Part shown: piece after piece, positions 45,390-50,421 of the stretch
How the letters are laid out: each line of letters opens with the position of its first letter
Position numbering within the stretch: position 1 is the stretch's first letter
Sequence record: MH383160
Strand: one strand, 5' to 3'
Source: Escherichia phage UB
Length of the DNA stretch: 64,000 nt
Notes under the pieces: generated by a model
What the model saw: only the letters and a program-made list of their open reading frames with translations
The model's database searches: none
What the model was told of the DNA's origin: nothing
Translations under genes and position numbers: made by a program

Positions 45390-45824
45390 CTATTTTTTAT
45401 ATTTTAAAATTAAATCACTCACGGCTTTCATTAGCTTATATGGAATAGCTAATTCTTGAACAGTACTTTCCATAAAATGTTCTTCTTCTGTATCATAAAA
45501 TGTTGAACTAAAGTGTTCACAATCATCTATACTATCATAAAAAGAAGACGTAAGTTTATCAACAATGACAGTGATTTGTTTGTCAGTTTTGGCACATCCT
45601 ACCTGAACGGTTAATCCAATATCATCAGCCTCTACACGAATTATAAACGAATTATTAGTATAGTTCAGCCAACAATCTTCACCAAAGTATACAACACTGT
45701 GTTTCTTCTGAAATGAAGTTGCGGTGTTAAGAACACCAATAACAACATCAACTGTTTTTTCATTTAAAATATTAGACATTTTTATTCCTGCTTCGTATGT
45801 TTCGTGAAATCTCAAATATTCCAT
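45390..45824 (-). CDS. hypothetical protein (weak member of C-terminal FQ-x-S motif family)
   Basis: 144-aa ORF. Confidence 0.55.
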   Translation of the reverse strand: MEYLRFHETYEAGIKMSNILNEKTVDVVIGVLNTATSFQKKHSVVYFGEDCWLNYTNNSFIIRVEADDIGLTVQVGCAKTDKQITVIVDKLTSSFYDSIDDCEHFSSTFYDTEEEHFMESTVQELAIPYKLMKAVSDLILKYKK

Positions 45825-46200
45825 TCAACTGCTCAACAGTTAAACCCTGTAAATCGTAAACTGTTGATAGTTGAAAGAACATCTCTGAATCTATAGTATC
45901 ATGTTCAATTGGAAGACTCAAGAGGTCTTTATTAATAAAATAATCATATGTTCGAATTGTCAAAGAATCACCAAAGATATCAATGTAAAATTTCGGAACA
46001 TTATGTAACGAAACATCTATTAATATGTTTTCAGCATATCTACAAGAAATTTTAGAATTATTTTTATAAGATTGGTATGAAAAATTATAAGGTTCATCGA
46101 CCGATGTGTATGATGAGGTATCACCTTCGGAAAATATTACACCACATTCAATAAGATGTGTTAACGACTTAGGTGGAATTTTTAACATTTCACTTCCCAT
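45772..46200 (-). CDS. paralog-family protein (C-terminal FFQLSTVYDLQGLTVEQL motif)
   Basis: C-terminal motif shared with 46190, 47329, 47687, 53805, 60085, 60908, 61360. Confidence 0.6.
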   Translation of the reverse strand: MGSEMLKIPPKSLTHLIECGVIFSEGDTSSYTSVDEPYNFSYQSYKNNSKISCRYAENILIDVSLHNVPKFYIDIFGDSLTIRTYDYFINKDLLSLPIEHDTIDSEMFFQLSTVYDLQGLTVEQLNGIFEISRNIRSRNKNV

Positions 46201-46609
46201 GCTTACTCATATTACTACGGATCACCCCACTAAGAAAACATATTTTCCTTAATGTATCATAACTGATATTTGTAAGATCATGTACAAAATTCAACTGCAA
46301 GTACATTTCTTCAGTTAATTGATTAAATGTATCATCAACATGAATGTTAGTATGTTCCGTTATATCTATTTCTATATTATTTTCCCAAATATCAATGCTA
46401 ACAGCATAGTCTGATGTATGTCTGGATTGAACTGAAATAAAAATATTATTACTGTTGTATAATGTCTCTGTGTATCCATTCAAAAATGATCCAACGACAA
46501 CATCAAAAATGCCATCTCTAATTGGGTTTTTTGTTTCAAACGTATCACTACAAACTTGACGGTATACAATGTCAACATACTTATCAATTAAAGTAAACAA
46601 ATAACTCAT
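46190..46609 (-). CDS. paralog-family protein (LQLNFVHDLTNISYDTL motif)
   Basis: Start set to ATG 46609 with AGGTGA RBS; listed 46618 start is GTG. Confidence 0.6.
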   Translation of the reverse strand: MSYLFTLIDKYVDIVYRQVCSDTFETKNPIRDGIFDVVVGSFLNGYTETLYNSNNIFISVQSRHTSDYAVSIDIWENNIEIDITEHTNIHVDDTFNQLTEEMYLQLNFVHDLTNISYDTLRKICFLSGVIRSNMSKHGK

Positions 46610-46626
46610 TGCATTCACCTATATAA

Positions 46627-46655
46627 GAAAAAAGGCCGATTCATCGAATCAGCCT
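46627..46655 (-). terminator. intrinsic terminator
   Basis: AGGCTGATTCGATGAATCGGCCT + U-run on minus strand. Confidence 0.55.
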
Positions 46656-46843
46656 TAAGTATAACACAGTAGAAGTTAAAAAGTCAACTTCTAAATTACA
46701 GCATCCAAGAGGAATAAAAAGATACTGTTAGAGGGTAACGAATATAATGAATTTGAGGGTAATATCATTATACGTAAAAAAGTGATAGCTTCTATACATA
46801 AGGAGGAATCAGTACTGACTAGAAGCTATCGGGTTAAACGATT

Positions 46844-47128
46844 TCAGTACTGAGTGTTTAGTTTAGGATGAGTATTTCCATCTTCGATTTGTTTTAGAAT
46901 CGAGTCACGAATTTCTACTGCCCCTTGATAACTATATTTATCTTTTGGGATCACCCATGTATATTCGCCATCAGTGGTTTTAAAATCAATACATGGATTA
47001 TCCCTGTATTCAGATGCAATGATTGCAATAACATGTAATGAATTCAATGAATGATTTGTATAAGGATAATTGTTATTATCTCTGAACGTGAATGTTTTAA
47101 GTTCATCAGGTGCAACAATGAATTCCAT
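46844..47128 (-). CDS. hypothetical protein
   Basis: 94-aa ORF. Confidence 0.55.
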   Translation of the reverse strand: MEFIVAPDELKTFTFRDNNNYPYTNHSLNSLHVIAIIASEYRDNPCIDFKTTDGEYTWVIPKDKYSYQGAVEIRDSILKQIEDGNTHPKLNTQY

Positions 47129-47319
47129 TATTCATCCTCGTACTTCTTGAATGGTGGAACATCTACCTTGAAGTCTTTGCACATCTTAGTTGTACGAACT
47201 TCAGTATTGTTGTGATAATTTTTCTTAAATTCATAAGAAACATAATTACGAATACCAGGTGTATGAATAATAGCAAGAACCAATGTACGACCAAACAAGC
47301 ATAATAAATTCCAGAACAT
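47128..47319 (-). CDS. hypothetical small protein
   Basis: 63-aa ORF. Confidence 0.45.
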   Translation of the reverse strand: MFWNLLCLFGRTLVLAIIHTPGIRNYVSYEFKKNYHNNTEVRTTKMCKDFKVDVPPFKKYEDE

Positions 47320-47328
47320 ATGAATCTC

Positions 47329-47694
47329 CTAATTGTGGGTTTTAACCAAACGTGCGACAGCTAGTATAGCATTAACCTCATCCAATGTCAACCCACCAAT
47401 GTCATTAATCATTGAGTACTGAAATAGTGATTCTTCAGTGTAATTGTAATCATGAGAAGCAATAAAGATTGCTGGTTTAGATGCATCCAAAATTATCTTT
47501 GTCATTGTAGTATATATATCAAATTGATACAATAGATTTTCACCTGTATATGCTACGTAGATATTATTTGAATAGGATGGATGTACCATTGTAAAACCAT
47601 CATAACATAATATTTTTATGTTCGGATCGTCAAAATTGCCTGTATAAAGGTTATTACAAACATCTTGCATTATACGTACTATTAGACTAGTCAT
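47329..47694 (-). CDS. paralog-family protein (FQYSMINDIGGLTLDEVNAIL motif)
   Basis: Shared C-terminal motif. Confidence 0.6.
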   Translation of the reverse strand: MTSLIVRIMQDVCNNLYTGNFDDPNIKILCYDGFTMVHPSYSNNIYVAYTGENLLYQFDIYTTMTKIILDASKPAIFIASHDYNYTEESLFQYSMINDIGGLTLDEVNAILAVARLVKTHN

Positions 47695-48112
47695 TTAAAG
47701 GATTTAGAACCTCTTCTGGAATCAACTTTTGAACTTTAAGTATAGCTTTAATGTCCTCAAATGTTAATCCTAATGTGTCGTTAAGGAGGCAGTACTGGAA
47801 GAATTTTTCTTCAGTATCAATATCGTTAACATTCAATTCAATTGATTCATCATCATAATCATAATCTTCATTATCACATTCATAACTTCTGAATATAACT
47901 TTTTCAAAATACACATCAAATGAATAAAAATGATTATTGAATTCATAACCAAGAAAAATATTAAAACATTTACTCAAATCTGTGGTTTGATTCAAATCTG
48001 GATCATAGCAAAATACTCTAACTTCACCAATATCTTCTAATTGTACATCATGCAGTGACCATGCGTTGTTTTTTAATACATAGTTCACCATTTTAACAAT
48101 GTTGTATGTCAT
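47687..48112 (-). CDS. paralog-family protein (FFQYCLLNDTLGLTFEDIKAIL motif)
   Basis: Shared C-terminal motif. Confidence 0.6.
   Translation of the reverse strand: MTYNIVKMVNYVLKNNAWSLHDVQLEDIGEVRVFCYDPDLNQTTDLSKCFNIFLGYEFNNHFYSFDVYFEKVIFRSYECDNEDYDYDDESIELNVNDIDTEEKFFQYCLLNDTLGLTFEDIKAILKVQKLIPEEVLNPLND

Positions 48113-49904: not shown

Positions 49905-50421
<517 letters not shown>

Follow-up and report, generated by a model that had tools for sequence, protein, structure and literature searches.

A conserved early-region spacer of an Asteriusvirus jumbo phage with a predicted terminator/promoter boundary and two copies of a highly iterated palindrome

Results

Location and genetic context of the spacer

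The DNA analyzed was a stretch of 64,000 nucleotides (nt) from Escherichia phage UB (sequence record MH383160), referred to below as the window, and the element of interest was a spacer at positions 46610-46843, which is the probable boundary between two early transcription units. All open reading frames (ORFs) between 42843 and 50421 were on the minus strand, in agreement with the annotations of phages G17, UE-S1, 121Q and further relatives, and features are read on that strand hereafter unless the plus strand is named. The unit upstream of the spacer comprised a gene of 63 amino acids (aa) and a gene of 94 aa, the latter ending in a TGA stop codon at 46846-46844. On the other side, the gene of about 139 aa that follows the spacer most likely starts at ATG 46609-46607, rather than at the GTG at 46618 chosen by the ORF-listing program: this ATG, which follows a Shine-Dalgarno sequence (AGGTGA, 46620-46615), was kept in all eight relatives compared and was the annotated start in G17. 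Given this start, the first-pass annotation of the window, which had delimited an intergenic region at 46620-46843, was right about the upstream edge, while the downstream edge had to be moved to 46610.

Over 1.4 kb around the spacer, the window was 99-100% identical to phages PBECO4, 121Q, G17, SP27 and others of the genus Asteriusvirus, with matches in both Escherichia and Salmonella phages, and by these matches its source is a jumbo coliphage of that genus (PBECO4/121Q-like). A 261-bp query across the spacer (46600-46860) was 100% identical in 16 records and was found once per genome, at a single place, in 35 records, with no further copy in the window. Comparative analyses were based on an alignment of the spacer from eight diverged asteriusviruses (97% down to 72% identity to the window), among which ph0011 was alignable over part of the spacer only.

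The region adjoins a tRNA cluster and is made up of short ORFs, several of them tandem paralogues; the flanking proteins were assigned to PHROG families of unknown function only, and none to a Pfam family. An early region of this kind, with RpoD-like promoters clustered among short early ORFs, has been described in the related phage CBB (PMC5259590). Upstream of the 63-aa gene, a good sigma-70-type promoter sequence (TTGACA-N17-TGcTATACT, 47391-47363) was observed within the gene at 47329-47694, at its 3' end; it is likely to be the start of the two-gene unit that ends in the spacer.

A predicted promoter abutting a predicted terminator

The downstream part of the spacer contained a predicted sigma-70-type promoter (46693-46658) followed by a predicted GC-rich intrinsic terminator (46656-46625). 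In the promoter, the -35 element TTGACT (46687-46682) was separated by 18 nt from the -10 element TATACT (46663-46658), which was preceded by the TG (46666-46665) of an extended -10; the complete arrangement, TTGACT-N18-TGtTATACT, agreed with the consensus at 10 of 12 positions in addition to this TG. The -10 region (TGTTATACT) was invariant in the eight genomes, and TTGAC was kept in six of them (TTGCA in UE-S1, TTGAT in ph0011). The -35 element lay within an AT-rich inverted repeat, TAGAAGTT/AACTTCTA (46693-46686 and 46677-46670), with a hairpin energy of -9.0 kcal/mol; this is the repeat that had been noted previously as an AGAAGTT/AACTTCT hairpin. In phage A4 both arms had become a different complementary pair (GGTATTGA/TCAATGCC) while TTGACT was retained, suggesting that the hexamer and the hairpin potential are both under selection.

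The terminator consisted of an 11-bp stem (AAGGCUGAUUC/GAAUCGGCCUU) with a 3-nt loop (gau) at 46656-46632, and a U-rich tail reaching to 46625. The first-pass annotation had also mentioned a terminator, and the hairpin (AAGGCTGATTC-gat-GAATCGGCCTT in the DNA, then a T-run) was recovered at this position by two independent scans. Its features were those of an intrinsic terminator: five G-C pairs, a 3-nt loop, a folding energy of -14.2 kcal/mol, and a U-run that is on the transcribed strand and follows the last gene of a unit, the 94-aa gene. The tail read TTTTCTT, the run being lengthened by two stem-closing U's, and the terminator was annotated as such in the GenBank records of G17 and UE-S1. 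From the -10 through the hairpin and the T-run, the sequence was almost invariant in eight genomes whose flanks differed by up to about 30%. Changes in the stem were a compensatory swap of U-A to A-U in JNE01 and a change of U-G to U-A in ph0011, and the loop was free to vary.

The -10 element ended one base before the terminator hairpin. From standard -10 spacing rules, the sole basis for this position, the start site is predicted at approximately 46651-46649, that is, inside the 5' arm of the terminator, where 46650 and 46649 are purines. The full terminator hairpin folded with -14.2 kcal/mol, as compared with just -3.1 kcal/mol for an RNA beginning at 46651 or 46650, in which a remnant of 5-6 bp was left. 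With the U-rich tail reaching 46625 and the Shine-Dalgarno sequence starting at 46620, there is no space for a further promoter between them, and the downstream cluster would therefore be expressed either from a start inside the hairpin or by leakage through it. In the search of the whole window against Rfam, tRNAs alone reached the gathering threshold; at permissive E-values, nothing convincing was found in 46560-46900, the best match being suhB/mmgR with 20.4 bits against a threshold of 41 (E = 0.05).

A conserved hairpin with a large loop

A second conserved structure, hairpin I1 (46830-46784), occupied the upstream part of the spacer. Its 11-bp stem (5' arm 46830-46820, 3' arm 46794-46784) enclosed a loop of 25 nt and corresponds to the perfect inverted repeat GATAGCTTCTA/TAGAAGCTATC of the first-pass annotation, which was present with arms at 46784-46794 and 46820-46830 and 25 nt between them. 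Both motifs attributed to the loop, AAGGAGG on the plus strand and CAGTACTG, were found in it. On the minus strand, the former reads as part of an anti-Shine-Dalgarno-like sequence, UUCCUCCUU (46808-46800), a single-copy sequence in the window, and the latter as part of a 10-nt word, TCAGTACTGA (46818-46809, hereafter c2). Another copy of the same word (c1, 46853-46844), the first of the two in the direction of transcription, holds the TGA stop codon of the 94-aa gene in most genomes. Both are copies of a palindrome that recurs genome-wide (see below), and c2 is fully complementary to c1.

The covariation of these pairings was counted over five distinct lineages. The stem of I1 was 100% paired in all five, and its changes comprised one compensatory replacement of A-U by G-C (A4) and two one-sided changes to G-U (UE-S1 and JNE01); on the plus strand, these one-sided changes are A-C mismatches. 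I1 had an energy of -14.3 kcal/mol, occurred as one copy per genome, and was found in seven of the eight relatives, being lost in ph0011. Pairing between c1 and c2 was maintained at 98%, with one compensatory change (JNE01) and two changes to G-U (Ecwhy_1 and JNE01). As a simple hairpin, c1:c2 had an energy of -12.0 kcal/mol, and the nested minimum-energy fold of 46860-46770 used c1:c2. A pseudoknot of c1:c2 and I1 would thus have one compensatory and two G-U changes per helix; the observed score was matched by 21 of 500 shuffles, with five lineages only, and the complementarity of c1 and c2 follows in any case from the fact that two copies of a palindrome are always complementary.

Individual segments were conserved as well. 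The segment TTCAGTACTG of c1 was invariant in eight of eight relatives, JNE01 included, even though the 94-aa gene is absent from JNE01; c1 is there located 19 nt downstream of the stop codon of another gene, so that it is non-coding in that phage, yet conserved. Within the loop, UCCUCCUU was kept in four of the five lineages (UE-S1 has UUCUCCUU), unlike the linker of 12-13 nt between c1 and the stem of I1, which varied freely. A run of six T's (46781-46776), 2 nt (AC) past I1, gives the hairpin the look of a terminator in this genome; this run was not conserved: UE-S1 has lost it by deletion, and it is weaker in Ecwhy_1, JNE01 and A4. Compared with intrinsic terminators, I1 lacked both a small loop (24-26 nt in the relatives) and a conserved U-run.

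All five one-sided changes in the stems of the spacer, the U-G of the terminator in the window included, suit a minus-strand RNA or the equivalent single DNA strand, an agreement for which we estimate a chance probability of about 0.03. Folding energies compared with shuffled sequences gave z = -6.2 for the minus-strand RNA and z = -3.4 for the plus strand. The promoter scan found no plus-strand promoter in the spacer, and the sole plus-strand ORF across AAGGAGG (23 aa, with a GTG start) was disrupted in the Ecwhy_1 group by an indel of 1 nt. As all local genes are on the minus strand, their mRNA carries CCUCCUU and not AAGGAGG, which rules out a ribosome-binding site; the motif lies on the strand opposite to every local gene and no start codon follows it. 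The description of AAGGAGG as sequestered did not hold either, because it is situated in the unpaired loop and outside any stem.

In the 64-kb window, 11-bp perfect inverted repeats with a loop of up to 40 nt gave eight raw matches at five loci, against a mean of 1.7 in simulations with a first-order Markov model. A single repeat of this length is therefore not rare in 64 kb, and the case for function rests on the comparison with relatives: the repeats of the spacer are judged to be real because they are conserved with compensatory changes. The conservation analysis that had been proposed as a check thus gave a positive answer, the elements being conserved across relatives with compensatory and strand-specific G-U changes. 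The earlier suggestion of a regulatory element rather than plain spacer stands as far as the conserved elements and at least two RNA-like hairpins are concerned, and fails for a role in ribosome binding, for which the strand is wrong; the promoter, its overlap with the terminator and the genome-wide nature of CAGTACTG had been overlooked.

A covariance model of c1 and I1, run over 204 kb (the window, JNE01, RaK2, GAP32 and PBECO4), recovered only the orthologue in JNE01, the weak matches merely containing CAGTACTG. Pattern scans of IMG/VR for more homologues yielded, apart from 121Q itself, chance matches only; a candidate contig of 359 kb proved unrelated. A scan of one metagenome gave a single true match, identical to the window. 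When the spacer was compared with the window by short-word BLAST, the palindrome was the only match.

Variable middle stretch and mosaic junctions

Between I1 and the promoter lay a variable stretch of about 80 nt (46775-46694), with two weak hairpins and the repeats TATAATGA/TCATTATA and ACAGTATC/GATGCTGT. It was mostly deleted in ph0011, carried an insertion of approximately 90 nt in A4 and was strongly diverged in JNE01, which indicates that it is dispensable. A direct repeat, TTACCCTC(A/T)AA, was observed in two copies 24 nt apart (46728-46738 and 46752-46762, minus-strand reading), and was partly conserved in close relatives. Three ORFs of 25, 23 and 23 aa could be drawn in the spacer, the first of which is annotated in G17, while 121Q annotates different ones. 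They were rejected as genes: no Shine-Dalgarno sequence was present, and indels in the relatives, not being multiples of three, break the frames, so that no ORF is conserved.

The junctions between relatives were located at approximately 46625 and just upstream of c1. In the group of Ecwhy_1, BF17 and TH47, the similarity of the spacer (about 89-90%) ended at about 46625, which is the end of the terminator tail, and the protein encoded beyond this point was 44% identical. At the other edge, the 94-aa gene was missing from JNE01, where a homologue of the 63-aa gene (58% identical) was directly followed by c1 and I1; this homologue had no similarity to the 94-aa protein. Judging from these comparisons, the spacer behaves as a conserved module between exchangeable genes, which are swapped or deleted at its edges.

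Among the surrounding genes, a tandem series of small genes (about 120-145 aa) was observed at 45390-48112, at least two of them belonging to PHROG family phrog_17453 and several sharing a C-terminal motif, F-[FL]-Q-[YL]...[ND]D..GLT. One of these paralogues encodes QYC by CAGTACTG followed by CCTCCTTA, an echo of the I1 loop. The possibility that the loop is a decayed gene fragment was considered, as its sequence CAGTACTG-att-CCTCCTTA resembles CAGTACTGCCTCCTTA in the paralogue at 47790, and it was dropped when BLAST showed the palindrome only.

Genome-wide excess of the AGTACT palindrome

The palindrome present in c1 and c2 was found to be the dominant word of the window. Its 8-nt form, CAGTACTG, was the most frequent 8-mer, with 36 copies, whereas dinucleotide shuffles gave 0.9 and a second-order Markov model 2.0 (overall expectation 0.6-2). 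Its core, AGTACT, occurred 173 times, the expectation being 22 by base composition and 34 by the Markov model, and its flanks were symmetric in the form T-(T/A)-C-AGTACT-G-(A/T)-A. The density was about one site per 370 bp, which extrapolates to roughly 1000 per genome. Sites were spread evenly along the window with a spacing between neighbours that looked random, and no clustering was detected: 17 gaps between neighbours were shorter than 40 nt, against about 18 expected by our Poisson estimate. Based on a crude gene call, 62, 33 and 45 sites fell in the three reading frames and 33 more in the 15% of the window that is non-coding; with sites in all three frames and in non-coding DNA, a protein-coding origin of the excess was rejected.

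The same trend was observed in related phages. Relative to base composition, AGTACT was enriched 8.0-fold in the window, 8.3-fold in 50 kb of JNE01, 6.2-fold in the late-gene region of PBECO4 (20-50 kb), 7.4-fold in Klebsiella phage RaK2 (Alcyoneusvirus) and 6.4-fold in Cronobacter phage GAP32 (Mimasvirus), and it was depleted in 20 kb of phage T4 (2 sites against 6.8 expected). When 23 kb of the window was aligned with JNE01 (80% identity), 60% of the AGTACT sites were conserved, as compared with 38% of composition-matched hexamers (p = 5e-5). Over-representation in coding and non-coding DNA, sharing across the clade, depletion in T4 and signs of selection are the attributes of a highly iterated palindrome (HIP). 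From these patterns, AGTACT/CAGTACTG appears to be a highly iterated palindrome common to RaK2-like jumbo phages; our literature search turned up no description of the motif in these phages and, as far as it reached, the palindrome is apparently undescribed.

A sub-class of sigma-70 promoters carried the palindrome against the -10 element, in the form TTGAC[A/T]-N8-CAGTACTGTATAAT with a 16-nt spacer (51054-51027, 33502-33475, 29189-29162 and 17923-17896; also 50027-50010 and approximately 50798-50780, all minus); the promoter ahead of a tRNA-Ser gene read AGTACTGGACA-N8-CAGTACTGATATAAT. This placement suggests an operator-like use of the motif. An identity with the LexA/SOS box was rejected, since by inspection the CAGTACTGTATAAT promoters have one half-site only.

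Further observations concerned the palindrome in other settings. Terminators with palindrome halves as their stem, GCCAGTAC-loop-GTACTGGC, were seen at 843-861, 3297-3317, 5729-5747, 7005-7023 and 8878-8901 on the plus strand and at 55746-55722 on the minus strand; three of them were followed by the same stretch, taaatatagtataatgaataaaggagg, before a gene start, and the block corresponded to a run of genes of similar size in JNE01. A second pair of CAGTACTG copies formed an 11-bp perfect inverted repeat (TACAGTACTGG/CCAGTACTGTA, 26-nt loop) at 8151-8198, at the overlapping junction of convergent plus- and minus-strand genes. The tRNA-Ser (49911-50002, minus) had the anticodon ACU in an anticodon loop CU-ACU-AA; in bacterial systems, it is unusual for the A at position 34 to be unmodified. 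The codon read by this tRNA would be AGU (Ser), which arises when AGTACT falls in frame 0. Most 6-bp palindromes containing G+C had zero copies in the window, with up to 13 expected (e.g. GGTACC, CCATGG, CAGCTG, GCATGC, CGTACG, TGGCCA and GGATCC), so that a strong avoidance of restriction sites was seen beside the excess of AGTACT.

Discussion

The organization of the spacer is most readily understood as that of a boundary cassette that acts on the minus strand and separates two early transcription units in a jumbo phage of the genus Asteriusvirus, an interpretation that we consider probable. Transcripts would begin at the upstream promoter (47391-47363), span the 63-aa and 94-aa genes and continue through a structured 3' untranslated region in which I1 comes first, acting most likely as a stabilizer of the RNA 3' end or as a weak, leaky terminator of the upstream unit. 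They would then stop at the GC-rich intrinsic terminator (46656-46625), immediately upstream of which the extended -10 sigma-70 promoter would restart transcription from within the 5' arm of the hairpin. The RNA made from this promoter would retain just the weak remnant of 5-6 bp and read into the Shine-Dalgarno sequence, and the next cluster would be translated. With a start inside the 5' arm, the promoter's own transcripts would be spared while upstream transcripts are stopped, and the two units would in this way be insulated at the point where transcription restarts. Being conserved between variable genes, the cassette would also mark recombination junctions, similarly to the promoter-early stem-loop (PeSL) cassettes of T4-like phages. 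On this interpretation, the element is a terminator/promoter boundary cassette of known kind, plus one unexplained conserved hairpin.

The PeSL terminator/promoter cassettes of T4-like phages (PMC4122927; also the available part of PMC2839356) are the known systems that share most with this arrangement. As in PeSLs, stem-loops and a terminator are joined to an early promoter of the sigma-70 type. The position, too, is a variable region, among small early ORFs to which no function has been assigned, and the spacer surpasses the neighbouring genes in conservation and coincides exactly with the junctions of replacements and deletions. In A4, moreover, the 5' arm of the stem-loop includes the -35, an arrangement shared with the canonical PeSL-type cassettes of the window. 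The latter, of the form AAAGGGTTGACTtcgGTCAGCCCTTTTTgcTATAAT, were found at five minus-strand sites (27422-27388, 24181-24146, 16038-16005, 14756-14723 and 12582-12552) and the spacer cassette is not a copy of them; in these five, the -35 is in the 5' arm of the terminator hairpin, the T-run serves as promoter spacer and TATAAT comes after it. Hairpins of the same type with no recognizable -10 were located at 21739-21716 and 20651-20634 (minus). Unlike PeSLs, the spacer is a single-copy element in each genome and not a dispersed repeat family; its strong terminator follows the -10 and overlaps the start site, whereas that of PeSLs is found at the -35 or upstream of it; its -35 stem-loop is AT-rich and has no U-run; and about 100 nt upstream there is an additional conserved hairpin, I1, whose loop is large.

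The hairpin at 46656-46632 resembles intrinsic terminators in its 11-bp stem with five G-C pairs, its 3-nt loop, its U-run and its position at the end of a unit, and differs from them in coming right after a -10 element, so that its effect on that promoter would depend on the start position. I1 shares with intrinsic terminators the U-run in this genome, but its loop measures 25 nt and its tail is not conserved. Stem-loops that protect mRNA ends are known from enterobacteria and phages, 3' hairpins blocking 3' exonucleases and 5' hairpins, such as that of ompA, protecting the other end. By analogy, I1 could be such an element, being stable, conserved and placed just past a stop codon, and the RNA predicted from the internal promoter would likewise begin with a short hairpin; the conserved loop sequence of I1, on the other hand, is not a generic feature of protective stem-loops.

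Several observations weigh against the boundary cassette as described. Promoter-like matches were as frequent in shuffled sequence as in the AT-rich window (30 vs. 30), the promoter of the spacer has an 18-nt spacing, and it is missing the AAAAG-type upstream element of most other TTGACA promoters in the window. I1 is a poor canonical terminator, given its 25-nt loop and a T-run that is weak or absent in several relatives; its deletion in ph0011 indicates that it is not essential; and the conserved content of its loop (CAGUACUG and UCCUCCUU) is not accounted for by the model. The role of I1 is the weakest step, because the loop is large and its conserved content is left unexplained. The cassette is single-copy, in contrast to the dispersed PeSL families, and as the literature search found no Asteriusvirus transcriptome, the promoter, start site and termination remain predictions.

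In an alternative that we regard as rather unlikely, I1, c1 and c2 form a dedicated cis-regulatory RNA, and not a passive 3' hairpin, that could control RNA 3'-end formation, stability or readthrough. It could take the shape of a pseudoknot, with the 10 bp of c1:c2 stacked on the 11 bp of I1 (the connecting loops of 12-13, 1-2 and 14-16 nt should be sufficient), or of a switch in which a ribosome stopping at the UGA in c1 blocks c1:c2 pairing and favors I1; on readthrough RNA, the CCUCCUU of the loop might also pair with the Shine-Dalgarno sequence. The pairing of c1 with c2 has support of the same kind as I1 (98% paired, with one compensatory and two minus-strand G-U changes), a change of CAG to CGG in Ecwhy_1 breaks the DNA palindrome with the RNA pair kept, c1 is conserved even where it is non-coding (JNE01), and UCCUCCUU is better preserved than the c1-to-stem linker; the two helices are of similar stability and the minimum-energy nested fold of 46860-46770 takes c1:c2. 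Nevertheless, the palindrome is selected genome-wide, so that the complementarity may be a by-product, and the covariation score, from five lineages only, is reached by 21 of 500 shuffles. The predicted fold did not include pairing of the loop with the Shine-Dalgarno sequence, the stop codon in JNE01 is 19 nt upstream of c1, ph0011 manages without I1, and no other element of this kind was found in the 204 kb searched in this group of phages. A second alternative is a signal at the DNA level, with c1 and c2, 35 bp apart, as binding sites for a reader of T(T/A)CAGTACTG(A/T)A, a dimeric DNA-binding protein or a methyltransferase, that could block or modulate the entry of RNA polymerase into the next unit. 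The counts of CAGTACTG and AGTACT far above expectation, in all frames and in non-coding DNA, the symmetric flanks expected of a double-stranded palindromic site, the conservation beyond that of composition-matched hexamers (60% vs. 38%, p = 5e-5) and the position of the motif directly beside the -10 element in four to six sigma-70 promoters at least, which suggests operator-like use, all point in this direction, and DNA methyltransferases have been reported for RaK2 (PMC3622015) and Sharanji (PMC11895373). The changes in Ecwhy_1 (c2) and JNE01, however, break the palindrome and keep G-U pairing in the RNA, neighbouring AGTACT sites are not clustered (17 short gaps, about 18 expected), a DNA site does not account for the covariation of the I1 arms, and no binding factor is known; we consider a signal of this type unlikely at the spacer. 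A combined possibility, that the two TCAGTACTGA copies are working sites of the iterated palindrome, read by a phage factor, and together with I1 control readthrough between the early units through a pseudoknot, a stop-codon switch or a protein roadblock, is put forward tentatively, as a minority view.

The downstream part of the spacer lends itself to a further alternative. A hairpin, an AU-rich single strand and a U-tailed terminator make up a layout typical of enterobacterial Hfq-dependent small RNAs, and this is the layout of 46693-46625, a stretch covered exactly by the sub-threshold Rfam matches to small RNAs (best suhB/mmgR), within a minus-strand fold that is a chain of hairpins (z = -6.2). 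A small RNA could accordingly be cut from the 3' untranslated region, or be transcribed separately, and end at the GC-rich terminator, with UGUUAUACUUAAGG serving as a single-stranded seed or an Hfq-binding region instead of a -10. It is very unlikely in our view: no Rfam match reached the threshold, the scan found no good separate promoter, the part upstream of the -35 is dispensable, and the occurrence of TTGAC 17-18 nt before an invariant TGnTATACT across lineages, outlasting the change of arms in A4, suits a promoter better than a seed. Last, the first-pass annotation had implied a plus-strand RNA in which the 11-bp hairpin hides or displays AAGGAGG as a ribosome-binding site. AAGGAGG is indeed a perfect Shine-Dalgarno core between inverted repeats, but with all genes on the minus strand, no plus-strand promoter found in the spacer, no ATG, GTG or TTG at a usable distance, a 23-aa ORF that is frame-shifted in relatives, an A-C mismatch at each one-sided stem change and a motif that lies in the loop and is not sequestered, this reading is already contradicted and can hardly be given any credence.

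The closest analogue of the AGTACT palindrome that was found appears to be HIP1 (GCGATCGC), the highly iterated palindrome of cyanobacteria, which according to the available parts of PMC4390886 and PMC5861425 is recognized by cognate orphan methyltransferases. The likeness concerns the CAGTACTG motif only and not the spacer: as far as HIP1 is described in those parts, both are 8-bp palindromes, CAGTACTG being the top octamer of the window, and both would be many-fold over-represented in coding DNA (all frames) and non-coding DNA, clade-wide, with signs of selection. On the same basis, the phage motif would differ from HIP1 in belonging to a virus and not to a cell, and in its AT-rich core, AGTACT.

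Taken alone, the spacer matters little, as a well-conserved example of how large lytic phages may separate early units and restart transcription between them, and as a further case of conserved cassettes that mark the points where small early genes are swapped. Its most notable detail is the placement of the terminator, the stem of which may contain the start site of the adjacent promoter. The palindrome is the larger lead. AGTACT/CAGTACTG dominates the word usage of these 350-kb genomes, in which most other palindromes containing G+C are avoided; its conservation exceeds the background, and at least three genera, infecting Escherichia, Klebsiella and Cronobacter, have it in common. Taken together, this implies an unknown system that reads the sequence, for which a modification enzyme, a DNA-binding protein and a repair bias are among the candidates, in a group of phages that is now being developed for therapy.

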